DNA of 37,059 nucleotides from Candidatus Shapirobacteria bacterium (GTDB taxonomy: Bacteria; Patescibacteriota; Microgenomatia; 0-14-0-10-38-17): NCBI GenBank assembly GCA_028697345.1, contig JAQVFF010000001.1, positions 1-37,059 on the forward strand, written 5' to 3'. Below the pieces are notes generated by a model that worked only from the letters and a program-made list of their open reading frames with translations, was not told the origin of the DNA and ran no database searches. A program made the translations under genes and the position numbers. Each line of letters begins with the position of its first letter. Position 1 is the stretch's first letter. Of the stretch, positions 4,912 through 22,803 are shown in pieces.

Positions 4912-5060
4912 AACAATTAAACTATCGCGTGGCTAATGAGTTTCTCTTAAAAAGAAATTGACTTTTCTAGTCTTATCCTATCAAACTTAGCTTTTTTTTG
5001 CTATGATTGATAAAATAAGTGACCTTGGACAAAGAGCTAAATACCTATGCTACATTAAAA

Positions 5061-5816
5061 ATGAAAAGAGGATTATTTCGACTGACGTTATTTATTGTTT
5101 TCTTTTTTTTGTTTAACCAACAGGCACGTAGCGCTTGTAATAGTTTTTCAGCCAGCACTAGTACCAATAGTGCCCACGTTTCCGTAAGGGCATCTGGGTG
5201 TGATCCTGACGGTAGATACTTGGTTCAAATAATTCAAAATGACAACGTCATTGAGGCCAATGAATTTTTTGTAAACACAGGCGAGGGTGAGGCAACTTTT
5301 TATTTAAGCGAAGAAGGAAATTATCAAGCTCGATTGTTCTTTGCAACCGATCTAATTGCTTCAACAAACTTTTCGATCCAAAATACTGTTCCCTTGAGTT
5401 GTGGTGATCCCTGTAATCCTAATGACTTAAATTGTCCTCCGGAATGTCCCTCAAGAAGCGTGGGTGCTGGTACTGCTTGGTATTGCCTTAGACCAGAAGA
5501 CTCTTATCCTGGAGAACCTGAGCCTATCGTTCAAGAAGGTTGTGTCGAAACTGCTCTTGGCTGTATTCCAGGCAATCATGAAGAGATGGTTAAATGGATA
5601 TTCCCTTATCTTTTAGGCCTGGGTGGGTTATTAGCCTTTGGCTTAATTGTCTTCTCCGGTATTCAAATATTAACCTCGGGAGGCAATCCAGAAAAAATCC
5701 AAGGTGCCAAAGAGACCATCACTTCAGCCATAACCGGATTACTGTTTATTATCTTGTCTTTATTTCTACTACGGCTGATTGGTATTAATATACTTGGATT
5801 GAAAGGGTTGAATTAA
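5061..5816 (+). CDS. pilin paralog 0: exported beta-rich plus Cys-rich N-terminal module fused to a C-terminal TrbC/VirB2-like T4SS pilin domain
   Basis: The ORF track starts at GTG 5019. ATG 5061 gives a signal peptide, MKRGLFRLTLFIVFFFLFNQQARS/AC. The C-terminal 90 aa (..YLLGLGGLLAFGLIVFSGIQILTSGGNPEKIQGAKETITSAITGLLFIILSLFLL..) aligns with the seven downstream pilin-like ORFs. Confidence 0.75.
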   Translation: MKRGLFRLTLFIVFFFLFNQQARSACNSFSASTSTNSAHVSVRASGCDPDGRYLVQIIQNDNVIEANEFFVNTGEGEATFYLSEEGNYQARLFFATDLIASTNFSIQNTVPLSCGDPCNPNDLNCPPECPSRSVGAGTAWYCLRPEDSYPGEPEPIVQEGCVETALGCIPGNHEEMVKWIFPYLLGLGGLLAFGLIVFSGIQILTSGGNPEKIQGAKETITSAITGLLFIILSLFLLRLIGINILGLKGLN

Positions 5817-5850
5817 CAAAACAAACACTTTATATTAAAATAAAAAAGAA

Positions 5851-6198
5851 ATGATCAAAAAAGGCTCTTTGTTGGCACAAACAGTTAGTTTACCTGATTA
5901 CTCCGATATCACCGGAATCGAAAGCAATGCTCCTATTAGGGGTTGGACCAACATCGGCCAAATCGTATCTTCGGCGCTTACTTATGTCTTTCCTATTGCC
6001 GGCATTTTAGTTTTTATTTACCTTATTTATGGGGGGATAAATCTTATGATCGCTATTGGCAACGAAGAAGGCATTAGGGAAGGTAAAGCCAAAATCACCA
6101 ATGCCTTGATTGGGTTTGTTATTATTTTTGTTGCCTACTGGATAGTCCAAGCCTTGGAAATAGTTTTGGGTGTTACCTTGCTCGACTGGGGTACTTAA
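5851..6198 (+). CDS. TrbC/VirB2-like T4SS pilin paralog 1
   Basis: 115 aa. Shows the helix / charged loop / helix core shared by the array (..IYLIYGGINLMIAIGNEEGIREGKAKITNALIGFVIIF..). Confidence 0.8.
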   Translation: MIKKGSLLAQTVSLPDYSDITGIESNAPIRGWTNIGQIVSSALTYVFPIAGILVFIYLIYGGINLMIAIGNEEGIREGKAKITNALIGFVIIFVAYWIVQALEIVLGVTLLDWGT

Positions 6199-6233
6199 TT
6201 TCAAAATAACTAAAAAAATAATAATCTAAACTA

Positions 6234-6569
6234 ATGAATCACGATAATATATTGGCTGTTGACATTGGGACAGATTTCAAAATTACTCCAAACATGGGAA
6301 TTGGAGAAGCTAATCAATTTAGATCTATCGGCGGCCTCATTTCAACCGTTTTGCCTAATGTTTATCTCTTGGCCGGTCTGATATTGTTGTTCTTCTTGAT
6401 TTTCGGCGGTTTGGCAGTTATATTGGGAGCAGGAAAGGGTAATCAAGAACAGGTTGAAAAAGGCAAAAAAGTTTTAACCGGCACCCTAATTGGGTTTTTG
6501 GTTGTTTTTGCCAGTTTTTGGGTTGTTCAAATTTTAGGAATTATTACCGGAGTAAAAATCTTTAATTAA
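6234..6569 (+). CDS. TrbC/VirB2-like T4SS pilin paralog 2
   Basis: 111 aa. Core ..FLIFGGLAVILGAGKGNQEQVEKGKKVLTGTLIGFLVVF... Confidence 0.8.
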   Translation: MNHDNILAVDIGTDFKITPNMGIGEANQFRSIGGLISTVLPNVYLLAGLILLFFLIFGGLAVILGAGKGNQEQVEKGKKVLTGTLIGFLVVFASFWVVQILGIITGVKIFN

Positions 6570-6584
6570 ACTAAAAATAAAAAA

Positions 6585-6929
6585 ATGAACATTCTACAGG
6601 TTGTTGGTACAATTCAACCTCCTAGTCAAATCACCCCAATAGAAGAGGGAGGCTTAGGTAGTTTCTTAAAAAATATTTTTATTCTTTTGATTGTCGGGGC
6701 GGGGATATTTGCTCTTTTTAATTTCATCCGAGCCGGTTACGCCTATATGGGTGCCAAAGACGATAAAGAAAAAATTAAAGAAGCTACTGCCATGATTATT
6801 AATAGTATTATTGGTCTACTGATTGTTGCCTCTGCTTTTGTAATTGCCGCCCTGGTTGGCCAATTGTTCTTTGGCCGTTGGGATTTTATTATCAGGCCGA
6901 CAATTTTGGGACCAGGAGCATCAGAATAG
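6585..6929 (+). CDS. TrbC/VirB2-like T4SS pilin paralog 3
   Basis: 114 aa. Core ..FNFIRAGYAYMGAKDDKEKIKEATAMIINSIIGLLIV... C-terminal tail ..FIIRPTILGPGAS. Confidence 0.8.
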   Translation: MNILQVVGTIQPPSQITPIEEGGLGSFLKNIFILLIVGAGIFALFNFIRAGYAYMGAKDDKEKIKEATAMIINSIIGLLIVASAFVIAALVGQLFFGRWDFIIRPTILGPGASE

Positions 6930-6948
6930 TTAATGTAAAATTATTTTT

Positions 6949-7314
6949 ATGAGATTTTTTATCAATAAAGTTTTCGCCCAAACTCAAATAGGAGATTTTT
7001 CAGAAGGACCATGGATAGTTCCAAGAGGAAACGATCTTGGTGGCCAAATAGCCGACATTGTTTCCGTTGTTATTGGTATTTTAACGGTTCTGGCTATTAT
7101 TTGGTTTATTATTGAATTCGTTGTTTCCGGCTATATGTTAATTAGTTCTACCGGAGACCAAGAAAAAACCGCTGAAGCCAAAAAAAGACTAACTCAGTCA
7201 CTTATCGGCTTGGTTATTGTTCTTAGCGCTATCGTCCTAATTAATGTCATTGCCTACATTTTCAATATTGATTTCTTAAATATTGGTGAATATCTTAACA
7301 ACTTAAGTTTTTAA
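6949..7314 (+). CDS. TrbC/VirB2-like T4SS pilin paralog 4
   Basis: 121 aa. Core ..FVVSGYMLISSTGDQEKTAEAKKRLTQSLIGLVIVL... Confidence 0.8.
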   Translation: MRFFINKVFAQTQIGDFSEGPWIVPRGNDLGGQIADIVSVVIGILTVLAIIWFIIEFVVSGYMLISSTGDQEKTAEAKKRLTQSLIGLVIVLSAIVLINVIAYIFNIDFLNIGEYLNNLSF

Positions 7315-7319
7315 AAAAC

Positions 7320-7697
7320 ATGGCCATCTTAACTTTAATTGCCGATCGGATCCAAAATCCACTTCTTCCTGATCAAGTATCGACTATGGACCAAACCCCG
7401 GCCATACTTAGCCAAACCTTAAGCAATGTTTTGACCCTGCTATTAATCGGTGCCGGAGTAGCTTTTTTTTTCATGTTTGTTGCCGGAGGATTAAGATGGA
7501 TTTTATCAGCCGGAGATAAAGAAAAAGTTGAAGGAGCCAAAAAGCAAATTTCTTCGGCCATAATCGGTTTAGTATTAATCTTGCTGGTCTTTGCTGTTGT
7601 CAGTTTAATTAGAACTCTTTTTGGCATCAATTTAGTGAGGTTTAACTTGCCCAGATTATTTAGTGGACCAAGTAGACTTGTTTTTGTGACCCTGTAA
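7320..7697 (+). CDS. TrbC/VirB2-like T4SS pilin paralog 5
   Basis: 125 aa. Core ..FFFMFVAGGLRWILSAGDKEKVEGAKKQISSAIIGLVLIL... Closest paralog of the next gene. Contains a T9 run at 7463-7471. Confidence 0.8.
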   Translation: MAILTLIADRIQNPLLPDQVSTMDQTPAILSQTLSNVLTLLLIGAGVAFFFMFVAGGLRWILSAGDKEKVEGAKKQISSAIIGLVLILLVFAVVSLIRTLFGINLVRFNLPRLFSGPSRLVFVTL

Positions 7698-7832
7698 CGG
7701 GCAGATGGACAGGATCAGGTTGTGTCCCAGGACAAGCAGGAGCAAACTGTCAATAATAAATATCACTTAGTTTAAAAATTAGATTCTTAGTATTTTTTAT
7801 ATTAAAATAAAGAAAGAAGGGAGGTGAAAGAA

Positions 7833-8213
7833 ATGAATAATGTTTTAAATAGGGTTGGTTCGGCTATACTGGGAGTTGTTTACGCCCAAGAAATCGCCAT
7901 TCAACCGCCAGACAGTGCTGGGACCCTAAACACCATTACTGTTGAAAATTTAATTTCCGGAACCATCACTTTAGTTTTCATTGCCGCTTCCTTGGTTTTT
8001 TTCTTTATGCTAGTGGCTGGAGGCATTAAGTGGATGATGGCCGGAGGCGATAAAGAAAAAGCCGGCGAAGCTCGAAGCCAATTAACTTCAGCTCTAATTG
8101 GTTTGATTGTTATCTTTCTGGCTTGGGCCATTTCTAAATTATTAGAAACCTTGTTTGGTGTTAATATTTTGGGAGGGTTCAGAATTCCTAATTTTTTTGG
8201 TCCAGCTTCTTAA
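7833..8213 (+). CDS. TrbC/VirB2-like T4SS pilin paralog 6
   Basis: The track starts at GTG 7824. ATG 7833 sits about 10 nt after a strong SD (AAGGGAGG, 7815-7822). Core ..FFFMLVAGGIKWMMAGGDKEKAGEARSQLTSALIGLIVIF... Confidence 0.8.
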   Translation: MNNVLNRVGSAILGVVYAQEIAIQPPDSAGTLNTITVENLISGTITLVFIAASLVFFFMLVAGGIKWMMAGGDKEKAGEARSQLTSALIGLIVIFLAWAISKLLETLFGVNILGGFRIPNFFGPAS

Positions 8214-8221
8214 AATAAGAT

Positions 8222-8548
8222 ATGACCCTTACCAGTTTTTTAACAGGTGTTAGCGTTTTGGCTCAAGATGATAGTGATGTTCATCAGATTCAAGACATTG
8301 AAGAAATAGTTAGTCGGCTTTTAGGACTTGTTGTTCCGTTTGTTGGAATACTCTTGTTGTTAATGTTAATCGCCGGGGGTTTTCAATATATTACCTCCGG
8401 CGGAGAAACGGAACAGGCTCAAAAAGCCAAAAAAACTTTAACTTATGCCTTTTTTGGCCTAGTAGTAGTTTTGGGTGCTTGGTTAATAATTAGACTATTA
8501 GAGGAATTCACGGGACTTAACCTAACAACCTTCCAAATCCCTCGTTAA
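8222..8548 (+). CDS. TrbC/VirB2-like T4SS pilin paralog 7
   Basis: 108 aa. Core ..LMLIAGGFQYITSGGETEQAQKAKKTLTYAFFGLVVVL... Confidence 0.8.
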   Translation: MTLTSFLTGVSVLAQDDSDVHQIQDIEEIVSRLLGLVVPFVGILLLLMLIAGGFQYITSGGETEQAQKAKKTLTYAFFGLVVVLGAWLIIRLLEEFTGLNLTTFQIPR

Positions 8549-8621
8549 GATTTTGCTCTTCTTGCCTCAAGAGGTTATTTTTGCTAAATTGAATTTAAGG
8601 TCTTGTGTAACTAGTCAAAAA

Positions 8622-10982
8622 ATGAAAAAAAAGTTCTCTTTTGTTTTTCCGTTGGTGCTTGTTTTTATTTTTTTATGTTCCCCTAGCCCTAGCCATGCCC
8701 AACAAGGTTTCGGTTTTAATATTCATGGTCTGGCTAAAGAGTCTGAAGATTTCATTAGTTGTACTTTGGATTGGCTGGGACAAAATTGTAATACTACTAT
8801 CGTCAGGCTTTGGGGCTACCAAAGCACTTTTAGTATAAATGGTGTTAATAACCTCCAAAAAGTTTTAGATGCCGCTCCGGCTAATATAAAATTTATTGTT
8901 GCTCTGGAAGATTTTCCTTTTGGACCTGCTGTTAGCAATTCTGGAAACTGGTTTTCCTCCGGATATAGAAGTCAATACCGAAATTATGTTCAGACAATCG
9001 TTAACAAATATAAAAATGATGATCGAATTTTGGTTTGGGAAATTATGAACGAACCTCATTGCAAGGGAGATTCGAGTTGTTTGGGAGCGCTTTATAATTT
9101 CATGTACGATATGGCCGGATTAATTAAATCCATTGATCCTTCGACCCATGTTTCTCCGGGTTTAATGGGCGGAGAAATACCTTGGTCAGAATACAACAGA
9201 ATCAATAACATTCCGGCAATTACCGCCACCTCGTGTCACTACAATGCCGATACCAACAATGTCAGCACTTGTTTGGAAGCAACAAATTACAAGGGAAATG
9301 TTAGCTTTTTTTATGTCGGGGAAGCAGGTTATTTGGGAAACGCTAATTGTTCCGGCGGCGGTTGCACTAATGATGATTGTACTAACTGTTGCGACTTAGC
9401 CAGTCTTCAGCAACGCGCCAATCAAATTAATCAAGACAGAAATACTCTCCTTGGGTCAGGAGCAAACGCTTTTTTAGTTTGGCAATTTTCTCCACCAAGG
9501 AACCCTCTTTTAATCTGTGATCGATTTTCTGTTTTTCCTTCAGACCCAGTCTGTCAAGGACAACAGCCGTTTACCTGCAGTCCTTCATCAAGCAGGGGAA
9601 TGGTTATTTCCGGTTCCAGAAATATTTGTGCCGATCTTGAAATAACTAAAACCGATAAGCAAGAGGCCACTTCTACCCCAATTACTGGCGGGACCTCCTG
9701 GGGAAAAAAGGCAGTGGCGGCGACTATCATACTTGATGATGCAAAATTTCCCGATTTTAACAGATTCCAACAATCAATGTCTCTTGGTTTAAACAAGCTT
9801 TTACCTCAAGAACTAGCCCAAAACATCAGCTTGGCTGGTGATGTTGAATTAAAATTCAAACATATTCCTTTATCCTTTAATGAAGACGGCACTCCTGTTC
9901 AGGAATATTCTGAATGTGAAGATCTTCCCAGGGGTCCGGCACAATTATCCGCTAACCTTTGGGGGAGACTAACCTCTTTAAGGGGTCTTTGCGGCTTTTT
10001 GGGAACCTGTGACCCTGTTGCCGATTTTCAATTTCAGCTGGAAGAAACACAATATCCCGGCTGTGATTATATTGCCAGCTGTGAACCGGCAGACCGGAAC
10101 TTGGCCGACAAAAATCTATCCATACCAGAACCAGAAGAGACAACATTCAGTTTTCTTGCTTGGTTTAAGAGAATAATATCGTATATCGAAGACCTTATTT
10201 CTAGAATAGGAAAAAAAACCACTGAAGATGAGGTTAGGGTACTGGTTCTTAGCCGCAGTAACCTTCCCGGAGCCTCGGTTTTAGCTGATTCTTCCAAATT
10301 TTTACAAAAATCCTTGTTTGAGGAAACAGTGGAACTGATTAGATCAAGAGGGGGGACCCAAGCTTTAAATGATGATTTTGACTATACTTTTGCCCTTAGT
10401 CCGGAAAGCAATATTCAAGAACAAGGCCGTTTTTATGGAATTGAACCCATGTGGAAAAACTATTGTCTTCATCTTTGCGGCAGTCTTCCCGAGGGAACAA
10501 TTCAAACCTTGGGCGACCAAATTTGTCCTTCTTGTAATCCCGAAGATTACAAAACTCCCAGTAGGCCCATACCAAAACCGGATAATTTGCCAGACGGATG
10601 CCACTGGGACCCTTATGTTGGCGGTTGCGACTACTACGACTGTGTTGTCGGAGAAACATTATCAGACGGAACAATCTGTCAACGAAGCTGTGAATTAGAC
10701 CCAATATGCGAAAGCGGACTTTGTACTAGAAACAAACTTTATACCAAACCCTATCTTCCTAACGGAACCTACTGCCCGAATAAATACTGCCAGCCGGGAG
10801 AGTGTTATTGGCTCCATTTTAGACACCCTAGCAGTTACTACTATCCCGACCAGGGTCTGCCGGAATCAAGTTATCCTTGGGGTCCCTGGTATACCAAGAA
10901 CCCCGATGTCTGCACCCGAGGCAACAATGTAGGCTGTAACCCGGATTGTTGCCTGGGATCAAGAACGGAACAATATGATTAA
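8622..10982 (+). CDS. secreted glycoside hydrolase family 5 (clan GH-A, mannanase/cellulase-like) with a C-terminal Cys-rich region of about 450 aa
   Basis: The track starts at TTG 8553. ATG 8622 gives the signal peptide MKKKFSFVFPLVLVFIFLCSPSPSHA/QQ. GH5 blocks: ..TTIVRLWGY.., acid/base ..LVWEIMNEPHC.., nucleophile candidate ..FFYVGEAGY... The rest of the protein is dense in Cys (..CHWDPYVGGCDYYDCVVGE..CQRSCELDPICESGLC..GCNPDCCLGS). Confidence 0.8.
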   Translation: MKKKFSFVFPLVLVFIFLCSPSPSHAQQGFGFNIHGLAKESEDFISCTLDWLGQNCNTTIVRLWGYQSTFSINGVNNLQKVLDAAPANIKFIVALEDFPFGPAVSNSGNWFSSGYRSQYRNYVQTIVNKYKNDDRILVWEIMNEPHCKGDSSCLGALYNFMYDMAGLIKSIDPSTHVSPGLMGGEIPWSEYNRINNIPAITATSCHYNADTNNVSTCLEATNYKGNVSFFYVGEAGYLGNANCSGGGCTNDDCTNCCDLASLQQRANQINQDRNTLLGSGANAFLVWQFSPPRNPLLICDRFSVFPSDPVCQGQQPFTCSPSSSRGMVISGSRNICADLEITKTDKQEATSTPITGGTSWGKKAVAATIILDDAKFPDFNRFQQSMSLGLNKLLPQELAQNISLAGDVELKFKHIPLSFNEDGTPVQEYSECEDLPRGPAQLSANLWGRLTSLRGLCGFLGTCDPVADFQFQLEETQYPGCDYIASCEPADRNLADKNLSIPEPEETTFSFLAWFKRIISYIEDLISRIGKKTTEDEVRVLVLSRSNLPGASVLADSSKFLQKSLFEETVELIRSRGGTQALNDDFDYTFALSPESNIQEQGRFYGIEPMWKNYCLHLCGSLPEGTIQTLGDQICPSCNPEDYKTPSRPIPKPDNLPDGCHWDPYVGGCDYYDCVVGETLSDGTICQRSCELDPICESGLCTRNKLYTKPYLPNGTYCPNKYCQPGECYWLHFRHPSSYYYPDQGLPESSYPWGPWYTKNPDVCTRGNNVGCNPDCCLGSRTEQYD

Positions 10983-11030
10983 CTCTCTCATTTGTTGACA
11001 AACAAAATAAAAACTTTTATTCTTAAACTA

Positions 11031-14639: not shown

Positions 14640-14794
14640 TTGCTATTCCTCCTTAAGAACTATTATTACAAAAAGGAAGAGAAATAGTCAACTAAATTAA
14701 TAATAGTTACTATTATAAGATACTTTGTTTATTTTTGCCAATATCTTTAATAATCTTGCGCCAATTTGTGGTTTGTTGTAAGCTAGAAAAAGAA

Positions 14795-16079: not shown

Positions 16080-16175
16080 AATATAAATAATAAATTCTAA
16101 ATTTCAACAAACTTAAGCAAATCAAAAATTGAACAAAAAATTAATAATTTTTAAAAATTAGAAACTTTACAAATT

Positions 16176-16880
16176 ATGCCTGCCGTTCCAATCCGTTCTT
16201 CTACACAAGATGCTCTACCCATAGAAGATATCCGCGATGATTTGGTTGTCTTAAAAGACGGTTCTGCCGCTTTAATTCTTCAGGTCAACGCCATTAATTT
16301 CAGCTTATTATCAGAAAAAGAACAAGATGCAATCATCTATGCTTATGCGGGCCTGCTTAATTCTCTTAATTTTTCCATTCAAATCATTATCCGCTCTCAA
16401 AAAAAAGATATTACCGGCTATTTATCTCTACTGGAAAAAGCTAAAGCTGGTCAAAATAATTCGTTATTAAAAGATCTAATTAATAAATATCAAGCTTTTA
16501 TTAGAGAAACGGTTACCCAAACAGAAATTTTAGATAAAAAGTTTTATCTGGCGATTCCTTTCTCGGCCCTAGAGTTAGGCACTGGTCAGGTTGCTTCAAG
16601 TGTCTTAGATCAATTCTTACCTGGTAAAAAAAAGACTAAAACAACCCTCAACTTTGACCGGGTGGTAGAAAAAGCCAAAACCAGTCTAGAACCCAAAAGA
16701 GACCACTTAATCCGATTACTTGGTCGAATTGGACTAGTTGCCCAACAATTAACTACCAATGAATTAATTCGACTTTTCTTTAGAGTTTACAACCCTGACG
16801 CCAAAATTGTTGACCATGCCCTAACCAAAGAATATACCAGTCCGATTATTAAAGATGATGATTCTATCCAAAAAAAATGA
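16176..16880 (+). CDS. stand-alone VirB4 N-terminal-domain-like protein (no ATPase domain)
   Basis: 234 aa. ..STQDALPIEDIRDDLVVLKDGSAALILQVNAINFSLLSEKEQDAIIYAYAGLLNSLNFSIQIIIRS.. resembles the N-terminal block of Gram-positive VirB4 proteins (Tn916 Orf16 / ICEBs1 ConE type), from memory. Its stop overlaps the VirB4 start (ATGA, 16877-16880). Confidence 0.5.
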   Translation: MPAVPIRSSTQDALPIEDIRDDLVVLKDGSAALILQVNAINFSLLSEKEQDAIIYAYAGLLNSLNFSIQIIIRSQKKDITGYLSLLEKAKAGQNNSLLKDLINKYQAFIRETVTQTEILDKKFYLAIPFSALELGTGQVASSVLDQFLPGKKKTKTTLNFDRVVEKAKTSLEPKRDHLIRLLGRIGLVAQQLTTNELIRLFFRVYNPDAKIVDHALTKEYTSPIIKDDDSIQKK

Positions 16881-18895
16881 TTAGTCTTCCTAAGGTTTTC
16901 AGTAAAAAAAACCAACCTGAAAAAACAGTACCCGCTAAAGGCAGCCAAGAACAACGAACCCTGGGTGATGGAGTATTGGTGATTAAGGACTTACTAGCCC
17001 CGTCAGCTATCGAGGTCGATTTCAACCACCTAAGAATTGATAATAAATATTTCCGCTCGTTGTTCGTGGCTGGCTACCCCCGATTTGTTAATGCTAATTG
17101 GTTGTCACCTCTGATCAACTTTGATCACACCATGGATTTGGCAATGTTTATTTATCCGGTAGAAATCAAAGGAACTCTAGATGATTTAAGAAGAAAAATT
17201 GCTGAAATGGAGGCTGAGATTGCCACCGACATTCAGCGAGGCAAGGTGGTTGACCCTTCAACTAAGGCAAAATTAGAAGATGCCCTTTCTCTTCAGGAGC
17301 AATTAACCAAGGGGGTAGAGCGATTTTTCCAGTTTGGCCTTTACTTAACTATTCCCGGCAACAGCGTTAAGGAGCTGGACGAGACCACCAAGGAAATTAA
17401 ATCAACCCTGGGATCACTAATGATCATCGCCAAAGATGCTACCCTGCAGATGGAAGAAGGCTTTCAAACCACTCTGCCAATAGGAGACAGCAAGCTCAAT
17501 ATCACTAGAAACATGGATACTACTTCACTGGCAACTACTTTTCCTTTTACCTCATCAGAACTGACTGCCAATGAAGGCATTTTATACGGCATTAACCAAC
17601 ATAACGGCTCTTTGGTTATTTTTGACCGGTTTAACTTGGAAAACGCTAATTCGGTTGTTTTTGGTAAATCCGGCTCCGGTAAAAGCTATATGATTAAACT
17701 GGAAGCCTTGCGATCACTAATGATGGGTACAGAAATAATTATTATCGATCCGGAAAACGAATATGAAAAATTAGCCGAAGCGGTTAGTGGAGAATATATC
17801 AGCTTCGGTTTTGGTTCCAGCGCCAAAATTAATCCTTTTGATCTACCGCAAAAATATACTGACCAGAACCAAACTCTCCAAGAAAACCATTTAGGATTCA
17901 AGTTATTATCTCTTCAGTCGCTTTTTAAAATTATGATGGGAAAAATGGATTCTGATGAAGAAGCAATATTGGATCGGGCGCTGGTAGCTACTTATAAAGG
18001 CAAGGGAATTACTCCCGATCCGGCCAGCCAAAAAAATGAAGCCCCCTTGTTAGAAGATCTTTACAAAACCCTTCTGGGCATGGAAACGGCCAAAGCCCAA
18101 ACCTTATCTAACCGACTGGAAAAATTTGTTAAGGGTTCACTGGTGGGAATTTTTGATCAACGCTCTAATGTTAATCTTAAAAATCCCTTTACTGTTTTTT
18201 CCTTAAAAAATGTTGAAGGTTCATTGCGGCCCATTGTAATGTTTATTATCTTGGATTATATCTGGACCAAGGTTCAAGACGATCTTAAAAAGAGAGTGGT
18301 TATTGTTGATGAAGCCTGGTATTTAATGCGTTATAAAGATTCTGCCCAATACTTAGAATCAATTGCCAAGCGAGCCAGGAAATATTACTTAGGCCTAACT
18401 ACCATCACTCAAGATGCTCCCGACTTCTTAGCCTCGCCTTACGGCAAATCAATCATTACTAATTCTTCTATTCAAATTCTAATGAAACAGCACCCGGCAG
18501 CGATTGACCAGATTGGAGAAATTTTTTACCTTTCTCAAGGTGAAAAAAATCTTTTGCTTTCGGCTGATATTGGTGAAGGATTATTTTTTGCCGGAGAAAA
18601 CCATGTTGCTATTCAAGTAATCTCTTCAAACGAGGAACATAAACTGGTCAGCACTGACCCAAGAGAAAAAACAGCTAAACTCAAGGTTCCGGAAGAGGGT
18701 AACAAAACTGTTCAGACCCAATATCAGACACAAATTAAACCAGAACAATCCCAAAACCAAAACCCGCCTAACCAACCAAGCAAAAGCACTCTTGGCGCTA
18801 ATGCTCCCAAACCGGATAGTCAAACAGCTAACAATACCGAATTTGTTGAAAATGAAACCCAACCCCCAATTAAAATTAACACCAATCTCGAATAG
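16877..18895 (+). CDS. virB4: VirB4-family T4SS ATPase
   Basis: 672 aa. N-domain ..LLAPSAIEVDFNHLRIDNKYFRSLFVAGYPRFVNANWLSPLINFDHTMDLAMFIYP... Walker A VVFGKSGSGKSY. Walker B RVVIVDEAW. Ends in a Q/N/P-rich low-complexity tail of about 70 aa. Confidence 0.9.
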   Translation: MISLPKVFSKKNQPEKTVPAKGSQEQRTLGDGVLVIKDLLAPSAIEVDFNHLRIDNKYFRSLFVAGYPRFVNANWLSPLINFDHTMDLAMFIYPVEIKGTLDDLRRKIAEMEAEIATDIQRGKVVDPSTKAKLEDALSLQEQLTKGVERFFQFGLYLTIPGNSVKELDETTKEIKSTLGSLMIIAKDATLQMEEGFQTTLPIGDSKLNITRNMDTTSLATTFPFTSSELTANEGILYGINQHNGSLVIFDRFNLENANSVVFGKSGSGKSYMIKLEALRSLMMGTEIIIIDPENEYEKLAEAVSGEYISFGFGSSAKINPFDLPQKYTDQNQTLQENHLGFKLLSLQSLFKIMMGKMDSDEEAILDRALVATYKGKGITPDPASQKNEAPLLEDLYKTLLGMETAKAQTLSNRLEKFVKGSLVGIFDQRSNVNLKNPFTVFSLKNVEGSLRPIVMFIILDYIWTKVQDDLKKRVVIVDEAWYLMRYKDSAQYLESIAKRARKYYLGLTTITQDAPDFLASPYGKSIITNSSIQILMKQHPAAIDQIGEIFYLSQGEKNLLLSADIGEGLFFAGENHVAIQVISSNEEHKLVSTDPREKTAKLKVPEEGNKTVQTQYQTQIKPEQSQNQNPPNQPSKSTLGANAPKPDSQTANNTEFVENETQPPIKINTNLE

Positions 18896-18906
18896 GCAAT
18901 TAAAAC

Positions 18907-21900
18907 ATGGCTGAAGCAAAAAAACTGATTTTGTCAAAGGAGTCAGCACAATTTATCCTTGAGGGCCTAAACTTCTTTAAAAAAAATCCCCAAGCCAAAG
19001 AGTGGCACAAACTAGATAAAGACACTTTTTTAGTTTTAGCCCGTGACGTTGCTCAATTTTACCCTGATAAAGAAGAAAGTTTGGAAGAATATTTGCTTCG
19101 TTTTGAATCTTTCTTGAGAAGAATTATTAATAGTCAGGAACTGGCCCCATCTATTCCTGAAAACCTGAACCAACTAGTTGAAGCTTTTGAGGCCTTCCAA
19201 AAAGAGCAAGACGCTGATATCAATTTGAAAAAAACTGCTATTGTTACCAGCCAGGATGTTAGCTTGGAAGACTGGATTAAAAACTTACAAGAGAAGCATC
19301 TGGCCCAAAGAATAGCAAAGGAAGTTGAAGAGGCGGTTGCTCCCATCGGTCTCCCCGAGGAACAAAAAGAGACAGTCAAAGAAACTTTAACCCAGGAAAT
19401 TACCGCTTCTGTTCCTATGGTGGTTATTACCAGGCCAGAACAAGAAAAATCAATAAAAGAAAAAATAAGTCGTGCTTTTGAAAAAGAAAAAACGACCGTT
19501 GTTTCGTCAACAAAACAGGCCTTAGTCAATCAACAATTACAAGAACTTGCTGATCGAGCCAGGTTTTTGACTGTCCCAATCGCCGTTAAAACTCAACCAT
19601 CACCAACACAAAAAACCCTTGAGGAAACAATTGCTAAAGTTCTTCGACAGCAAACCCCAATCAAAGAAGAGGCCGCTGTTCAAAAAGTCGCCCAGGCAAT
19701 TACTCAAGTAATCAGCCAAAAAGTACCCAAGTTAGATAAATCAGAACAGGCGGGTTTATCTGCACTAGAAAAATTTGCCCTAGTCGAAAACACGATTAAT
19801 GCTTCACTGCCAGAAATTGTTCAGGCCTTAACTAACCCTGAAATCACCAGCCTGCCAATAGAAAAAACAACCATTAATCCTCAAGACGGTCAGGAATTCT
19901 TGCAATTATTAACCGGCCAAATTAACCAACCGGTTCTTGATTTGTCCTCGTCGCTTAAAGAAGATTTAAACCGGACCAGGCAACAAAAGGTATCTTTTCT
20001 AAGACCTGAAACAAAAATCATTTTTGACCAACTGGAAGAAAATCCACTATTACCTTATCAGCTTATTCCCCAAGAAGAACTTCAGCCGCTAGGAAACCAA
20101 ATAAGGGCTGTTGTCAATTACCGCGGTATCAGTCCAGGGTCGGCGGAAATTATTCAATATCAAAACGAGGAGGCGGCTGGTTTAAGGTCCGCTATAGAAG
20201 GAAAAACCAGTTTTTGGTGGCAAAATCAAACAAACCGTTTTCAGGCTCAAGGGGCAGAAGAGGCAATTATCACGCAAACTACCAAAAGATTTAATCTCCA
20301 ATTGCATTTTGAAGAAAAATTTCCCCAATTTAAGAATTTCTATCAACAGGCTTTCAGTTGGTCCGGACCGCGAAAATGGTTTAATCAAGTTACCAGCCCT
20401 ATCGCCGGTTTAGTTAAAGAGAAAGTTGGTTCTTGGTGGCAAAAAACCGGTCTAGCTAAAAAGCTGGCCCAAAGAGCCGAATCAAAAGCAAGTCTTTTTT
20501 TCAAAAAAACCCTCGGTTCTTTTAGTATTTTTAAGGCTGGCGTTAAAAAAACTCTTCAAGAAGGAGCCAAAAAAGGTGTCACCAAGGCTATTTCTTGGCT
20601 GGCCACAAAATTAGCCGCCACAAAACTTGGAGCAATCTTGGGCTCTATTGCTCCGGGAATAGGTAATGCTATCGGGGCGGCGGTTGGTTTTGTGATTGAT
20701 GTTGGTCTTGGTCTAATTAGGGGAGGTTTTAGGTTGTTTTCCAATGTTTTGCAAAAAGTGTCCGGAGGCGAAACTGAAGCCGAAAAGACCATTAAGGCTA
20801 ATTTTGGACCCTTGGGTAAAATTGCTCTCTCTCCAATTACTTTAATTGTTATTGGTGTGCCAATATTGATTATTCTTTTGGCTTTAGGACTGTTCCAAAT
20901 CGAGGAAGGGGCTTTTGTTGTTGATGTTGCTGAGCATGCCGTTGTTTTTTATGGTTCTTGTTATGTTGAAGATATTCATCAAACTGATGTTATTACTGAT
21001 GAAAACTTGGCTATTTTTATAGCCAGAAATAAAGCCGCCTACCCTAATAGTTTAATCGAAGAAAAAATTCATCAGGTAATTGCTGAAAGTATTTCGGTCG
21101 GGTTTAATCCCGCATTGGCAATAGCAATTTGGGGCGAAGAAAGCCACTTTTCGGATTACTCTAATCCTAGGGTGGTTCCGGGAAGAGATTTTGGTTGCGG
21201 AGTTTATTGTTCTAGTAACCAACCAAGCAACTTTGATGAATCGTTGGCTTGCTTTGTCGCTAAACGCACCAGTTGTAATAGTGCCTGTCTTAGCAGGGCT
21301 ACTTTCGCAGAATTTATGGAATGCTATGGACCAGTTGCCGAAAATCCAAACTTTATCTCTAATACATTAAAATTTTATCAACAACTCGTTCCTTCGGGTC
21401 CAGGAGTAGTTGTTTGTCCAGGAGGAACCACTGGAGAGTTTGCTTCTCAGCTTCTTAACCACCTTATTGCCTGCTATGGCAATATCATTAATCGGGCAAG
21501 CTATAACGATCAGGGTGTTTGTTTACTTGGCCGAGGAGTTTCTCAATCAAGCGTGCAACATATTACCTGGTCTGTTGGTCAATTTAGCGCCCTTCAGTGT
21601 GTTGGCTTTGCCAAGGCTGTCGAAGTAGAAACCGGCGCTGGCAGCTTAGGTTTTGTTCGCGGAGCCTATGGTGATGCCGCCAATTATTATCGTCCTTTAA
21701 CAGGCTATCAACAAGTTCCCAAAAGCCAACAGAATGTGATGGTTGGAGATTTGGCCTTTTTCTCCGGGACTATTGGCCATGTTGGAGTTGTTGTTGATGT
21801 TGCTCCCGATATGTCCTGGTTTATAATCGCTCAAGCAATTGGTTACAGGAGCGGATCTGCTTACGGGTTAATAAACGAATCAGGAAGAATTCATATAACA

Positions 21901-21939
21901 TACAATTCTTTGTTGGGTTTTCTTAGACGAGCGCCATGA
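18907..21939 (+). CDS. T4SS-associated cell-wall hydrolase: long E/K/Q-rich N-region, Gly-rich/TM segments, SLT-like lytic transglycosylase motif and C-terminal CHAP peptidase (VirB1 / PrgK / CwlT analog)
   Basis: 1010 aa. Hydrophobic stretches ..LGAILGSIAPGIGNAIGAAVGFVIDVGLGLI.. and ..IALSPITLIVIGVPILIILLALGLFQI... ..FNPALAIAIWGEESHFS.. carries an SLT-type catalytic Glu context. CHAP Cys ..FSALQCVGFAKAV.. and His ..GDLAFFSGTIGHVGVVVDV... Confidence 0.75.
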   Translation: MAEAKKLILSKESAQFILEGLNFFKKNPQAKEWHKLDKDTFLVLARDVAQFYPDKEESLEEYLLRFESFLRRIINSQELAPSIPENLNQLVEAFEAFQKEQDADINLKKTAIVTSQDVSLEDWIKNLQEKHLAQRIAKEVEEAVAPIGLPEEQKETVKETLTQEITASVPMVVITRPEQEKSIKEKISRAFEKEKTTVVSSTKQALVNQQLQELADRARFLTVPIAVKTQPSPTQKTLEETIAKVLRQQTPIKEEAAVQKVAQAITQVISQKVPKLDKSEQAGLSALEKFALVENTINASLPEIVQALTNPEITSLPIEKTTINPQDGQEFLQLLTGQINQPVLDLSSSLKEDLNRTRQQKVSFLRPETKIIFDQLEENPLLPYQLIPQEELQPLGNQIRAVVNYRGISPGSAEIIQYQNEEAAGLRSAIEGKTSFWWQNQTNRFQAQGAEEAIITQTTKRFNLQLHFEEKFPQFKNFYQQAFSWSGPRKWFNQVTSPIAGLVKEKVGSWWQKTGLAKKLAQRAESKASLFFKKTLGSFSIFKAGVKKTLQEGAKKGVTKAISWLATKLAATKLGAILGSIAPGIGNAIGAAVGFVIDVGLGLIRGGFRLFSNVLQKVSGGETEAEKTIKANFGPLGKIALSPITLIVIGVPILIILLALGLFQIEEGAFVVDVAEHAVVFYGSCYVEDIHQTDVITDENLAIFIARNKAAYPNSLIEEKIHQVIAESISVGFNPALAIAIWGEESHFSDYSNPRVVPGRDFGCGVYCSSNQPSNFDESLACFVAKRTSCNSACLSRATFAEFMECYGPVAENPNFISNTLKFYQQLVPSGPGVVVCPGGTTGEFASQLLNHLIACYGNIINRASYNDQGVCLLGRGVSQSSVQHITWSVGQFSALQCVGFAKAVEVETGAGSLGFVRGAYGDAANYYRPLTGYQQVPKSQQNVMVGDLAFFSGTIGHVGVVVDVAPDMSWFIIAQAIGYRSGSAYGLINESGRIHITYNSLLGFLRRAP

Positions 21940-21953
21940 TAATATAAATAATA

Positions 21954-22358
21954 ATGAACAAAAAAGTAAAGATTTTAATCTTAGTTTTAGTAATAATTGC
22001 TATTGTTTTGTTTCTGGTCAGGTTTTTTTTGTTAAAACCAGTATCCGAGGAAACAAGTTTTTATCCGGATTCCACTCTCACGCCCGCCCCAATAACCGAA
22101 GAGCCATTAAGTATTTTTGAAGAACAAGAACAGATAAGAACTGCTAATTATCCGCTAATCGACAAGACTCCTTACCAGACAACCTTGTTTGAAATTACTT
22201 ATAGTGGGCCTCTTGAACTAAAAGTAATCATGTTTGGTGAGAACCAAAAACAAATAGCCAACGAGGTAAATATTTGGTTAAAAGAAAATGGAATTGACCC
22301 CAATAGTCACACGATTGAATTTGCCAAACCCCCTGTTTCTTCCCTTGATGAATCTTAG
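21954..22358 (+). CDS. small N-terminally anchored exported protein, T4SS-locus accessory (function unknown)
   Basis: 134 aa. Single N-terminal TM (VKILILVLVIIAIVLFLVRFFLL). Follows the hydrolase gene by 14 nt on the same strand. Confidence 0.55.
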   Translation: MNKKVKILILVLVIIAIVLFLVRFFLLKPVSEETSFYPDSTLTPAPITEEPLSIFEEQEQIRTANYPLIDKTPYQTTLFEITYSGPLELKVIMFGENQKQIANEVNIWLKENGIDPNSHTIEFAKPPVSSLDES

Positions 22359-22389
22359 CCAATATTAGAGTCAGTTAAAATAAGCGGTA

Positions 22390-22803
22390 ATGAAAAACAA
22401 ACCAGTAATTATTCTAATTGTCGTTTTGGCCTTTTTAACAGGAATGTTAATTTCTCGAAAAATTCTTTTTACTGATCAAAATTTAGCCTTGGTCTCGTCT
22501 GAGCCAAATATTTTTCAGGACAATGTTAATCCCAACTTAGAGAAAATCACTTTTCAGTTTAATCAATCATTAGATAAAACCAATCTTTCCGTTAGTATTA
22601 TTCCCGATCTTCAACACCAAATTAAAAAAGAAACCAACAATTTGATTATTTTCCCTGAAGAGGTTTTAAAAGAAGGGGAGCGCTACCAAATCGAAATAAG
22701 AGAAGTCTCTGGCGATTTCTACTTTCCGTTTAGTTTTCAAACTGGCTCTGGTTTGTCCGACCCCGCCGAACAGGAAACAGGCTTTCAGTCTGAAATCGAC
22801 TAG
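22390..22803 (+). CDS. small N-terminally anchored exported protein with an Ig-like (SbsA/Big_5-like) domain, T4SS-locus accessory
   Basis: 137 aa. N-terminal TM (VIILIVVLAFLTGMLI). ..ITFQFNQSLDKTNLSVSIIPD...LIIFPEEVLKEGERYQIEI.. resembles Ig-like surface domains. Confidence 0.5.
   Translation: MKNKPVIILIVVLAFLTGMLISRKILFTDQNLALVSSEPNIFQDNVNPNLEKITFQFNQSLDKTNLSVSIIPDLQHQIKKETNNLIIFPEEVLKEGERYQIEIREVSGDFYFPFSFQTGSGLSDPAEQETGFQSEID

Follow-up and report, generated by a model that had tools for sequence, protein, structure and literature searches.

A chromosomal, apparently non-conjugative T4SS with eight pilins near dnaA in Candidatus Shapirobacteria

Introduction

What kind of T4SS carries its own glycanase and eight pilins and shows no genes for DNA transfer, and what could it serve? 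Such a locus lies on a 37,059-bp contig of a Candidatus Shapirobacteria MAG (Patescibacteria/CPR, class Microgenomatia), where the NCBI record holds proteins identical to its VirB4, GH5, Y and CHAP proteins under the same name. The contig was analysed over its whole length, hereafter the window. The original prediction read the locus as a chromosomal, non-conjugative T4SS derivative of an episymbiotic bacterium with a small genome. This reading is right but is already the published view, since the locus is a chromosomal, pilus-encoding, apparently non-conjugative T4SS of the type already described for ultra-small episymbiotic Patescibacteria.

The published system has an MPF-FATA-derived VirB4 and no relaxase (Wang et al. 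2023, PMC10633639; Quinonero-Coronel et al. 2025, PMC12102498). Epibiotic growth of the Saccharibacterium Southlakia depends on its homologous cluster and on the pilins within it, and neither a coupling protein nor a relaxase is recognisable there (PMC10633639). The catalogue of T4SS across Patescibacteria records TrsD, PrgI, VirB6, proximity to dnaA, and arrays of 2–11 pilin genes that are abundant in Microgenomatia; a T4CP lies near virB4 in only 148 cases, and T4CP homologues are found elsewhere in many of the genomes (PMC12102498).

Results

Eight pilin genes open the cluster (Table 1). As predicted for VirB2/TrbC-like proteins, all eight ORFs in 5019-8548 on the plus strand match Pfam T4SS_pilin (PF18895; E 9e-6 to 7e-13). 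Seven exceed the gathering score, the eighth (6585-6929) reaches 26.1 against a cutoff of 26.6, and two of the eight also give a weak TrbC/VirB2 match. The short pilins have a common G(D/N)xEK loop in the hairpin. Because they are 24–41% identical to one another, whereas each of the seven has a one-to-one orthologue, 62–73% identical and in the same order, in the relative locus L001, the paralogues are taken to be old, each conserved in its own right; this 1:1 orthology of seven of the eight pilins may be a locally new point. An AF2 pilin model from an eight-sequence alignment (pLDDT 72) places helices at residues 20-58 and 63-97, and Foldseek gives its highest probability (0.89) to the CedA1 conjugation pilus of A. 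pernix (8dfu), though at an E of 1.5, which is not significant. On an NCBIfam model that describes a pilin-like protein of a Mycoplasma ICE, the pilins come close with 38.8 bits against a cutoff of 40, which makes a premise that monoderm T4SSs are always without VirB2-like proteins slightly too strong.

The long first pilin begins with a signal-peptide-like stretch, continues with a predicted extracellular Cys-rich region of ~150 aa (9 Cys) and ends in a VirB2-like hairpin of two helices (TM segments 194-212 and 241-259). Its orthologue in the relative locus L003 is 307 aa long and 40% identical, and a member of at least 170 aa is present in about half of the pilin arrays among the fetched loci.

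Table 1. Features of the T4SS locus, in window positions.
Feature	Position	Strand	Basis
Long first pilin, 265 aa	5019-5816	+	PF18895 at residues 194-254, E 3.5e-9
Seven short VirB2-like pilins, 108-129 aa	5851-8548	+	All match PF18895
Short pilins 1-4	5851-6198, 6234-6569, 6585-6929, 6949-7314	+	PF18895
Short pilins 5-7	7320-7697, 7824-8213, 8222-8548	+	PF18895
X-slot secreted protein (predicted), 786 aa	8622-10982	+	Signal peptide, GH5 head, Cys-rich tail
VirB6-like polytopic membrane protein, 509 aa	10992-12521	+	At least 6 hydrophobic segments; family-profile match
Y protein, 700 aa	12537-14639	-	Convergent to VirB6; N-terminal module, then a ~550-aa body from an uncharacterised family
23S rRNA intervening-sequence protein family gene (23S_rRNA_IVP; four-helix bundle)	14735-15199	+	PF05635, E 4e-24
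PrgI/VirB3-like membrane protein	15228-16079	+	PF12666 PrgI, 30.9 bits vs cutoff 27
TrsD-like protein, free-standing homologue of the VirB4 N-terminal domain	16176-16880	+	NCBIfam TrsD NF041427, E 4e-7
VirB4-family ATPase, 672 aa, without the usual N-terminal ~185 residues	16877-18895	+	P-loop_TraG, AAA_10, CD1110
VirB1-like cell-wall hydrolase (predicted), 1010 aa	18907-21939	+	CHAP 28.4 bits vs cutoff 26, residues 896-974
Pair of small proteins with N-terminal anchors, 134 and 137 aa	21954-22358, 22390-22803	+	One N-terminal TM segment each

Protein X fills the gap between the pilin array and VirB6. The mechanical ORF begins at 8553 and the likeliest start is 8622 (Met24, signal peptide), the same Met24 start as in NCBI MDD3679247.1, named 'cellulase family glycosylhydrolase'. 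ORF 8553-10982 matches PF00150 Cellulase/GH5 (30 bits, cutoff 23.5), and the solved structures nearest to the GH5 head are GH5 endo-beta-1,4-mannanases (PDB 3ziz, E 1e-9). The GH5 signature residues are present in NEP (E167) and GEAG (E257); the nucleophile and substrate assignments, drawn from motifs only, are putative. What X shares with the same-slot proteins of L001, L003, L005 and L008 is confined to a conserved Cys-rich module at the C-terminus (ORF residues ~390-793; 40 Cys in all), and among 17 X-slot proteins scanned GH5 was found in this one only. The combination of a conserved Cys-rich tail with exchangeable heads, GH5 being the head here alone, may be locally new, and the GH5 head on this one accessory protein is the sole unusual local feature of the locus.

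ORF 10992-12521 has no direct match in Pfam, NCBIfam or the PDB. Its family profile aligns with same-slot Saccharimonadia proteins of 800-1100 aa (hhalign probability 99%, E 9e-18), and 4 of 12 of those proteins match PF04610 TrbL/VirB6 (best E 1.3e-6). Because this same-slot family links the ORF to PF04610, its predicted assignment as a VirB6-like polytopic protein holds, transitively only.

The cluster, first described as co-directional, is interrupted by protein Y on the minus strand, and a minus-strand gene fills this slot in most fetched Microgenomatia loci. No TM segment or signal peptide was found in Y, and searches of Pfam, NCBIfam, PDB and PHROGs gave no match. Over 134 aa at the N-terminus, Y and the same-slot protein of L008 share 34% identity (E 3e-14), and their bodies are unrelated. 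Among same-slot proteins, the N-terminal module (~110-120 aa) sits on at least four unrelated body families; such a shared ~110-aa module on unrelated bodies may also be new locally. Clustered at 50% identity, the family of the Y body amounts to about 100 clusters in a set of 1.84 billion proteins. L005 and L008 have the neighbouring IVP-family gene (likely start, ATG at 14826), L001 and L003 do not, and relatives of it occupy different positions in 14 further T4SS loci; it is probably a sporadic insertion and no part of the machine. A DGR reading of this gene is unsupported, as neither a reverse transcriptase nor TR/VR repeats were found.

The PrgI-TrsD-VirB4 triad occurs in most of 80 genome loci, across Microgenomatia, Saccharimonadia and Dojkabacteria. 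The PrgI/VirB3-like protein has a TM hairpin (residues 26-66) and a near-threshold C-terminal match to a CarboxypepD_reg-like beta-sandwich (PF13620, 31.3 vs 32.3 bits, residues 199-256), and is 64-68% identical in L001 and L003. The TrsD-like ORF, unnamed in the original prediction, has a stop that overlaps the virB4 start (ATGA). Its product matches N-terminal parts of VirB4 profiles (VirB4_plasma positions 103-233, CD1110 2-118) and, weakly, Pfam TraC_F_IV, and PF26593 TraC-like is recorded on its orthologues. VirB4 itself reaches 391 bits (cutoff 325) on the NCBIfam model 'VirB4-like conjugal transfer ATPase, CD1110 family', a match that spans profile positions 185-735 only; it also matches P-loop_TraG (E 5.5e-30), AAA_10 and the VirB4 C-terminal domain in the PDB (4ag5, E 1.8e-43). 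Its Walker A motif, GKSGSGKS, lies at residue 263, and VVIVDEAW is present. More than 8000 homologues have E below 1e-20; the best 120 listed are 65-90% identical, and every organism-named match among those listed is a Patescibacterium.

The first ~580 aa of the hydrolase lack a signal peptide and are followed by TM segments (~585-662), an insert termed CHmid (residues 671-845) and a C-terminal CHAP domain with QCVGF (Cys898) and GHVG motifs. It had been predicted as an SLT+CHAP enzyme: profile searches support the CHAP half, as they do the PrgI/VirB3-like, VirB4 and GH5 assignments, and none confirmed SLT. CHmid has an E-E-S motif and is putatively lysozyme/SLT-like; even as a 16-sequence profile it gave no match in Pfam, PDB or PHROGs. 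Hydrolase relatives (848-966 aa) are without residues ~677-842, and CHmid is homologous to a domain in X-slot proteins of L003 and 33 metagenome loci. The second of the small anchored proteins that follow (137 aa) has a weak Big_5 Ig-like match (E 1.8e-4). The pair corresponds to one gene of 214-225 aa in relatives, and BLAST against L001, L003, L005, L006 and L008 places its halves in swapped order.

Housekeeping genes flank the locus, with SpoIID upstream and POR (pyruvate:ferredoxin oxidoreductase), dnaA and dnaN downstream. The locus ends ~3.5 kb from dnaA and the likely oriC; the cumulative GC-skew minimum falls at ~26 kb in the window, and three DnaA boxes lie at 26325-26375. G+C, taken per 2 kb, is 0.37-0.43 in the locus and 0.40-0.44 upstream and falls gradually to ~0.32-0.36 downstream, with no sharp boundary at the locus. 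The order pilins, X, VirB6, Y (minus strand), PrgI, TrsD, VirB4, CHAP, Ig-like, POR, dnaA recurs in L001/L007, L005, L006 and L008, with an origin-proximal rearrangement in L003, and order and flanks are kept in other Shapirobacteria-clade genomes, in which VirB4 is 77-88% identical. A Pfam scan covering all large ORFs of the 37-kb window bears out the predicted absence of relaxase, VirD4/T4CP, VirB9/10/11 and integrase. Walker A occurs in the window in VirB4 and DnaA only, and a VirB8-like component was not recognised.

Discussion

The best explanation overall, and a likely one, is a Patescibacteria-type chromosomal T4SS that descends from MPF-FATA conjugation and is no longer in a mobile element. 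We are more confident still of the identity and non-conjugative nature of the locus, which we regard as highly probable. The locus encodes a membrane platform of PrgI/VirB3, a VirB6-like channel protein and VirB4 with a separate TrsD-like N-terminal domain, together with a membrane-anchored CHAP hydrolase, eight diverged pilins, one with an extra extracellular domain, and a GH5/Cys-rich protein with a signal peptide. By established T4SS biology, VirB4 would pull pilins from the membrane and a hollow pilus would be polymerised on VirB6/VirB3; the CHAP enzyme would open the cell's own wall for the machine, and the long pilin and secreted enzyme would act at the host surface. To our knowledge, GH5 enzymes do not cleave peptidoglycan, and the GH5 target would for this reason be some other glycan in the host's envelope or matrix. 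From the literature on relatives, the whole would be a host-contact organelle that serves epibiotic growth and not conjugation.

The chromosomal, non-conjugative reading draws its support from the housekeeping/oriC setting, the conserved flanks and the window's lack of mobility genes. The reading as an ordinary ICE or conjugation module whose relaxase, coupling protein and integrase lie beyond the 37-kb window is very improbable. Its case is that VirB4 belongs to the CD1110 conjugal-transfer family, that TrsD, PrgI and a CHAP hydrolase are typical of MPF-FATA conjugation, and that a few Patescibacteria genomes do carry relaxases; these are, however, only 103 genomes, with the relaxase close to virB4 in only 15 cases (PMC12102498). 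Relaxase, coupling protein and att sites, named in the original prediction as marks of an ICE, were looked for in the window and none was found, nor was an integrase, a tRNA or flanking direct repeats. Housekeeping genes on both sides, dnaA/oriC adjoining, the same flanks in several species whose VirB4 has diverged and the smooth G+C profile also argue against it. Somewhat less improbable, though still doubtful, is that the pilin fibre mainly holds the host, with no transport and with hydrolases that serve assembly only. A set of eight conserved pilins, of which one bears an additional surface domain, and the Ig-like anchored proteins at the cluster end would suit an adhesion filament, but type IV pili already serve Patescibacteria adhesion and motility according to the literature, a VirB6 channel with a full VirB3/VirB4/TrsD motor exceeds the needs of a fibre, and a non-peptidoglycan glycanase suggests envelope penetration beyond attachment.

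Effector export is the main alternative to uptake, and we consider it rather unlikely. The T4SS would then translocate proteins into or onto the host, with the divergently transcribed Y, whose bodies of ~500 aa are interchangeable, as cargo or cargo adaptor and secreted X as a second, Sec-dependent accessory. Wang et al. (PMC10633639) and reviews since then favour protein export or leave room for it, and Y lacks a TM segment and signal peptide, keeps its slot inside the locus and resembles polymorphic secreted proteins in carrying one N-module on at least four unrelated bodies; a modular cytoplasmic protein of this kind would suit an export substrate and counts against a pure import model. On the other hand, the coupling protein, the usual substrate receptor, is absent in or near the locus, no toxin or enzyme domain could be recognised in the Y bodies, no small gene resembling an immunity partner turned up next to Y, and its export outside the cell is itself a proposal. 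The Y module is moreover N-terminal, whereas the signals of T4SS substrates known to us are C-terminal.

Because neither relaxase nor coupling ATPase accompanies the apparatus, the organelle would most likely be a pilus conduit through which the cell reaches host material; uptake as its direction, of host nucleic acid or cytoplasm, is our tentative preference. In a cultivated Microgenomatia parasite, strain OT8, tubular structures enter the host and host RNA is taken up, and its authors suggest that the tubes could possibly be T4SS pili (bioRxiv 10.64898/2026.06.21.733656). With MPF-FATA conjugation the locus shares TrsD, PrgI and a CHAP hydrolase, and differs in that relaxase and coupling ATPase were not found in the 37-kb window. 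Uptake through the conduit would resemble that by the archaeal Ced/Ted importers, which operate without a relaxase and combine VirB2, VirB4 and VirB6 (PMC9905601).

Gene content and genomic setting

The window is a clean, complete Microgenomatia example in which every part of the system lies within one 18-kb block beside the probable oriC. The original prediction had read this block as a single co-directional cluster; this does not hold, as the gene for Y, a 700-aa cytoplasmic protein, sits on the minus strand, convergent to VirB6. Its VirB4, GH5, Y and CHAP products match NCBI proteins of a Candidatus Shapirobacteria MAG exactly, which sets the window in Patescibacteria, class Microgenomatia. 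Cumulative GC skew in the window reaches its minimum near 26 kb; coinciding with it, three 9-mers resembling DnaA boxes, including a perfect one, fall within 50 bp (26325–26375) in the dnaA–dnaN spacer (26264–26608). This spacer is probably oriC, so that the T4SS locus ends ~3.5 kb from it. Counted window-wide, DnaA boxes do not exceed chance, and only the 26325–26375 cluster is suggestive. Promoter and terminator scans of the window gave the same counts as shuffled sequence, with the best promoter-like site upstream of Y.

Within the window, a Walker A motif is found in VirB4 and DnaA only. The 578-aa polytopic membrane protein beyond dnaN lacks a Walker A motif and is therefore not a hidden coupling ATPase. 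In L001, a locus from a Shapirobacteria-clade relative, a gene with an annotated 579-residue product occupies the same position after the TPP-enzyme gene and runs past the end of that locus; the two are likened by position and size.

Features of the window and of the related loci compared with it (L handles)
Feature	Coordinates	Strand	Basis or remark
tmRNA gene, 3′ part, truncated by contig start	1–249	+	Rfam RF00023, 66 bits, model positions 122–374; not reported by ARAGORN
600-aa protein, DUF5657, bPH_2 protein, SpoIID	273–4911	-	Pfam/NCBIfam scans; upstream flank
Eight consecutive T4SS_pilin genes	5019–8548	+	PF18895
GH5 Cys-rich secreted protein (X)	ORF 8553–10982, likely start 8622	+	Start as in NCBI record
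VirB6-like 509-aa polytopic membrane protein	10992–12521	+	At least 6 hydrophobic segments
Y, 700 aa	12537–14639	-	ORF listing
23S_rRNA_IVP-family gene	14735–15199	+	PF05635
PrgI/VirB3 protein with TM hairpin	15228–16079	+	PF12666; CarboxypepD_reg match near-threshold
TrsD-like protein	16176–16880	+	NF041427
VirB4	16877–18895	+	NCBIfam/Pfam/PDB matches
CHAP protein, 1010 aa	18907–21939	+	PF05257
CHmid domain	Window 20917–21441 (residues 671–845 of the CHAP protein); L003 33–800; L085–L117	+ (window)	Compact, ~140 aa, extracellular
Two small anchored (Ig-like) proteins, end of block	21954–22803	+	TM segments
Pyruvate:ferredoxin oxidoreductase (POR)	Downstream of T4SS block	-	Pfam scan
dnaA	24842–26263		Pfam scan
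dnaN	26609–27721		Pfam scan; further housekeeping genes beyond
578-aa polytopic membrane protein	28552–30288	+	No Pfam match
Y-slot genes of related loci	L001 6242–8173; L003 5619–7550; L005 4708–6534; L008 3566–5644; L091; L104; L112

Conservation and absence of mobility genes

The Shapirobacteria-clade relatives L001/L007, L003, L005, L006 and L008 carry a VirB4 77–88% identical to that of the window. The synteny check proposed with the original prediction came out positive in these relatives: L001/L007, L005, L006 and L008 share the order pilins, X, VirB6, minus-strand gene, PrgI, TrsD, VirB4, CHAP, Ig-like, POR, dnaA and dnaN. L003, a 597-kb contig, has the same layout in split form, with the long and one short pilin gene across dnaN/dnaA, beside SpoIID (15968–20817), an arrangement consistent with an inversion across the origin. 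Among 80 species-representative loci, the PrgI–TrsD–VirB4 triad recurs in Microgenomatia, Saccharimonadia and Dojkabacteria and does not recur in those labelled Gracilibacteria or Peribacteria.

As read from motifs earlier, the 37-kb window holds no relaxase, VirD4/TcpA coupling ATPase or integrase in Pfam scans; nor do the precomputed Pfam lists for L001 and L003 include a relaxase or a coupling ATPase (T4CP). The absence of these two speaks against conjugation, and equally against export of the classical, T4CP-dependent type. The window also contains no tRNA and no meaningful direct or inverted repeats, only chance-level 30–40-mers, and an ICE is made very unlikely by the lack of att-like repeats, integrase and tRNA there. 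The view of the locus as a chromosomal, non-conjugative derivative is thus supported, and is the same as the published one.

Motor and membrane platform

The VirB4 ATPase is unambiguous, scoring 391 bits against NCBIfam conju_CD1110 (cutoff 325) in an alignment restricted to model positions 185–735. More than 8000 homologues were found at E <1e-20, the best 120 of them 65–90% identical, and all organism-named homologues among the matches listed are from Patescibacteria; judged by its sequence, this VirB4 would belong to the MPF-FATA-related Patescibacteria clade. Both a TrsD homologue and PrgI/VirB3 are encoded beside virB4, the latter, as predicted, passing PF12666 (30.9 bits, cutoff 27). The TrsD-like ORF matches NF041427 (E 4e-7) and also the N-terminal parts of VirB4 models, so that the N-terminal domain absent from VirB4 is supplied by the preceding ORF.

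The VirB6-like protein stood in part. Direct searches of Pfam, NCBIfam and the PDB (single-sequence, and with a 19-sequence profile) returned nothing, and support came through another family: the VirB6 family profile aligns with 800–1100-aa Saccharimonadia same-slot proteins (hhalign probability 99%, E 9e-18), 4 of 12 of which match PF04610 TrbL/VirB6. By this transitive evidence only, we class the product as putatively VirB6-like. When iterated, the VirB6 profile recruits pilins via profile positions ~85–160. The same drift turned up fused pilins, with 3–5 tandem pilin-like hairpins in single proteins, in some Saccharimonadia-type loci (L077 17164–18063, 299 aa; L074 17963–19345, 460 aa).

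An old array of eight pilins

All eight predicted VirB2-like pilins match PF18895, seven of them passing the Pfam gathering score, which the eighth misses by 0.5 bit. In alignment they appear as a hairpin of two helices whose loop reads G(D/N)xEK, and the AF2 model built on the eight-sequence alignment has helices at 20–58 and 63–97 (pLDDT 72). Foldseek gave no significant E-value for this model, the two-helix hairpin fold being too simple for such a test; the most probable neighbour was the Aeropyrum pernix CedA1 conjugation pilus 8dfu (probability 0.89, target-normalised TM-score 0.70, non-significant E 1.5).

Arrays of 2–10 pilin genes are common among the loci compared. The seven short pilins of the window have 1:1 orthologues in kept order in L001 (VirB4 87% identical), with 62–73% identity, whereas paralogues inside the window array share only 24–41% with one another. 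This marks the array as old, with every member kept up individually, and speaks for a heteromeric or staged pilus rather than for antigenic variation. The termini of VirB2-type pilins face outward on the pilus. If this applies here, the fibre would show the Cys-rich N-terminal region (~150 aa) of the first pilin as an adhesin-like decoration.

Against NCBIfam NF045849 (Mbov_0395 family pilin-like conjugal transfer protein, from Mycoplasma ICEs), window pilins reach 38.8 bits with a cutoff of 40 (8222–8548 and 5019–5816), and the TrsD-like ORF has its best score against the Mycoplasma ICE VirB4 model (NCBIfam). VirB2-like proteins are therefore not wholly missing from monoderm MPF-FATA systems, a slight qualification of the earlier claim that these carry no large VirB2-like pilin arrays.

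Differing heads in the X slot

X denotes the secreted protein encoded between the pilin array and VirB6, here a GH5 head followed by a Cys-rich C-terminal module. The GH5 call proved sound: PF00150 scores above cutoff, aligned only over profile positions 61–200 of 272, and the nearest solved structures of the head are endo-beta-1,4-mannanases. The NEP motif, with the acid/base E167, aligns to PDB GH5 mannanases, and E257, in a GEAG 90 residues after E167, is the nucleophile predicted from this motif only.

X and the same-slot proteins of relatives have only the C-terminal module (residues ~390–793) in common, and the head differs by genome. In the window it is GH5; L005 has an unknown ~400-aa region in its place, L001 and L008 hardly any head at all, and L003 and 33 metagenomic loci a ~140-aa domain with an invariant E-E-S and four conserved Cys (CHmid), a previously undescribed domain that is the head in most genomes. 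Across 17 X-slot proteins scanned, the GH5 of the window is the one Pfam-recognisable domain, the other 16 proteins having none. The C-terminal module has just 3 homologues among 5.8 billion proteins, none with Pfam domains, and the two that bear an organism name are from Shapirobacteria; the module may dock the protein to the pilus or the machine.

We know of no GH5 enzyme that cleaves peptidoglycan, so the target of X is probably another glycan, of the host surface or matrix. The accessory slot can take up a non-peptidoglycan glycanase, which points at host-envelope glycans as a target. In the available portions of Quinonero-Coronel 2025 and Wang 2023, no GH5 domain is described for the protein encoded between pilin array and VirB6.

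The CHAP hydrolase and CHmid

The hydrolase had been predicted to combine SLT and CHAP domains. The CHAP part is confirmed (PF05257, 28.4 bits, cutoff 26), with catalytic-type motifs at Cys898 in QCVGF and at the His of GHVG; the SLT part, which corresponds to CHmid, found no match in Pfam, the PDB or PHROGs. The protein begins with a ~580-aa region without signal peptide, followed by TM at ~585–662 and then the enzymatic domains. CHmid is here an insertion (residues ~677–842) that close relatives lack in their CHAP protein, and it is otherwise found almost exclusively in the protein between pilin array and VirB6 of Microgenomatia-type T4SS loci. Its consensus reads WPNSKI...GWNPAFVIALWIEESGASG...YDLGC...FEEFMC..NPNFP, with the E-E-S invariant and the four Cys conserved.

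Pfam yielded nothing for the full protein, the isolated domain or 16 homologous domains, nor did PDB sequences with a single sequence or with 2- or 16-sequence profiles; a large-database search with the C-terminal 370 residues of the CHAP protein gave none at E <= 1e-3, and the AF2 single-sequence model of CHmid (pLDDT 35) is unusable. The E-E-S is followed shortly downstream by a conserved Gly-Cys, with a spacing that by eye is like that of SLT motif I, and CHmid is possibly a very divergent lysozyme/SLT-like domain.

Downstream of the CHAP gene, each of the two small proteins has its own N-terminal TM, and relatives have one 214–225-aa anchored Big_5-like protein instead. One of the two corresponds to the C-terminal half of that protein and the other to its N-terminal half, with their order swapped, which points to a local duplication or rearrangement.

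A modular protein family in the Y slot

Most Microgenomatia loci have, in this slot, a gene on the minus strand running towards VirB6. In the window Y an N-terminal module of ~110–120 residues starts MTEG..M.GPEQ, and genes with this module are without exception convergent to VirB6. The same-slot proteins of L001, L003, L005, L008, L091 and L104 have only this module in common with the window Y; the L112 protein alone shares the body too. The bodies (~500 aa) fall into at least 4 unrelated families, and that of the window comprises ~100 clusters at 50% identity among 1.84 billion proteins, occurring alone or fused to other N-termini. Function searches by Pfam on 35 family members, PDB profile and PHROGs were all empty. 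Neither the minus-strand gene nor the shared module is mentioned in those parts of Quinonero-Coronel 2025 and Wang 2023 available to us.

The 23S_rRNA_IVP gene next to Y (~120 aa, four-helix bundle) is sporadic in T4SS loci, in the manner of a small itinerant gene. It is also found in L005, L008, L010, L068, L078, L081, L087, L089–L092 and L095–L097, in varying positions (X/VirB6, Y/PrgI and TrsD/VirB4 gaps). A DGR for this 23S_rRNA_IVP/Avd-like gene is not supported, as neither a reverse transcriptase ORF nor a pair of template/variable repeats turned up in the window.

Proposed mechanism and direction of transport

By sequence, TrsD and VirB4 form the cytoplasmic motor, PrgI and the VirB6-like protein the membrane parts, and the eight pilins a set of membrane hairpins, alongside the hydrolase, X as a Sec-type secreted enzyme and the two anchored Ig-like proteins. 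Following general T4SS biology and a 2025 review (PMC12857230), pilins would be dislocated from the membrane by VirB4 and polymerised on the VirB3/VirB6 platform, with the CHAP enzyme remodelling the cell's own wall. The same review treats these systems as without parallel among monoderms in being essential and in potentially making conjugative pili. Secreted X probably acts on a non-peptidoglycan glycan of the host surface or matrix.

As to direction, we tentatively favour uptake of host nucleic acid or cytoplasm, because of the Ced/Ted precedent and the OT8 observations. The archaeal Ced/Ted importers, built of VirB2, VirB4 and VirB6, import DNA and have no relaxase (Beltran et al. 2023, PMC9905601). 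OT8, the first cultivated Microgenomatia, grown on a Chloroflexota host, extends tubular structures 'that may be T4SS pili' into the host and takes up host RNA (2026 preprint, bioRxiv 10.64898/2026.06.21.733656). Effector export seems unlikely to us, and in its classical T4CP-dependent form has the lack of relaxase and T4CP in the window against it; the modular cytoplasmic Y family inside the locus would be the most concrete candidate substrate or adaptor. A mainly adhesive role, to which the Cys-rich region of the first pilin, decorating the fibre in an adhesin-like manner, might lend itself, is improbable.

Beside uptake as the favoured direction, we put forward the hypothesis, itself doubtful, that the X and Y slots of the Microgenomatia T4SS locus are exchangeable host-specificity modules. 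If it were true, the GH5 head would be the mark of a lineage living on a host with a sheath or matrix rich in mannan or beta-glycan, and in the Y N-terminal module there would be, for the first time, a candidate recognition tag or adaptor for the cargo of a monoderm T4SS that lacks a coupling protein. The Patescibacterial T4SS is among the few machines shown essential for epibiotic life in a large, mostly uncultivated radiation.

Comparison with known systems

With the MPF-FATA class (pCF10 Prg, pGO1 Trs, C. difficile CTn2/CD1110, ICEBs1 Con, Mycoplasma ICE), the locus shares the VirB1/3/4/6 core without outer-membrane complex, a TrsD-like protein (pGO1), a TM-anchored CHAP hydrolase and a VirB4 past the CD1110 cutoff. 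Unlike that class, the window has no relaxase, T4CP, integrase, oriT-type element or PrgB-like surface adhesin; it encodes eight pilins rather than zero or one, and the locus is fixed beside oriC in a position kept between species.

The component set is analogous to that of Ced/Ted (VirB2-like pilin, VirB6-like channel, VirB4-like ATPase), and the system is likewise chromosomal, domesticated and without relaxase in the window. The CedA1 pilus is the most probable neighbour of the pilin model (at E 1.5), and the drift of the VirB6 profile echoes the VirB2–VirB6 N-terminal homology noted by Beltran et al. (PMC9905601). In contrast to Ced/Ted, it is bacterial and keeps PrgI/VirB3, TrsD, cell-wall hydrolases and eight pilin paralogues; by sequence VirB4 is not a CedB member (54 bits, cutoff 700). 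The Bartonella/Anaplasma VirB T4SSs, as discussed in the accessible text of PMC12102498, likewise have tandem VirB2 paralogues and are host-associated and non-conjugative. Antigenic or host-range variation is the role proposed for their paralogues, whereas the short pilins of the window have ordered orthologues, which points to stable and non-redundant subunits.

The likeness is to the Patescibacteria T4SS as described in the portions available of two studies. In Southlakia epibionticum, the homologous cluster SEML1_0006–0019, including a pilin series, is essential and resembles Gram-positive conjugative T4SSs, with neither coupling nor relaxase proteins recognisable in it; this is the one organism in which a T4SS requirement for epibiotic growth is known, by Tn-seq (Wang et al. 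2023, Cell, PMC10633639). A survey (Quinonero-Coronel et al. 2025, Microb Genom, PMC12102498) reports that the VirB4 of Patescibacteria are monophyletic and related to those of MPF-FATA; the commonest neighbour of virB4 is TrsD, and PrgI is also present. It counts 441 VirB2 arrays of 2–11 genes, especially in Microgenomatia and Saccharimonadia, with ~25% identity inside arrays. Relaxases were limited to 103 genomes, a T4CP lay close to virB4 in just 148 cases, and closeness to dnaA/dnaN is noted.

The window shares with these systems an MPF-FATA-type VirB4 with adjacent TrsD, PrgI/VirB3 and a divergent VirB6, a tandem divergent pilin array, a peptidoglycan hydrolase downstream of virB4, the lack of a nearby relaxase or coupling protein, a chromosomal site near dnaA/dnaN and a Microgenomatia host. 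It departs from the survey's Microgenomatia, at least in the text available, where VirB6, of 'extreme sequence divergence', and VirB1 are scarce or unlinked to virB4; here both are linked and too divergent for standard profiles. The locus is a further member of the described Patescibacteria T4SS, the basic discovery having already been published. The differing X heads with GH5, the modular Y and the link of the VirB6 profile to pilins may be new locally, and the remaining interest lies in the exchangeable X/Y modules and the stable eight-pilin set, offered as hypotheses.
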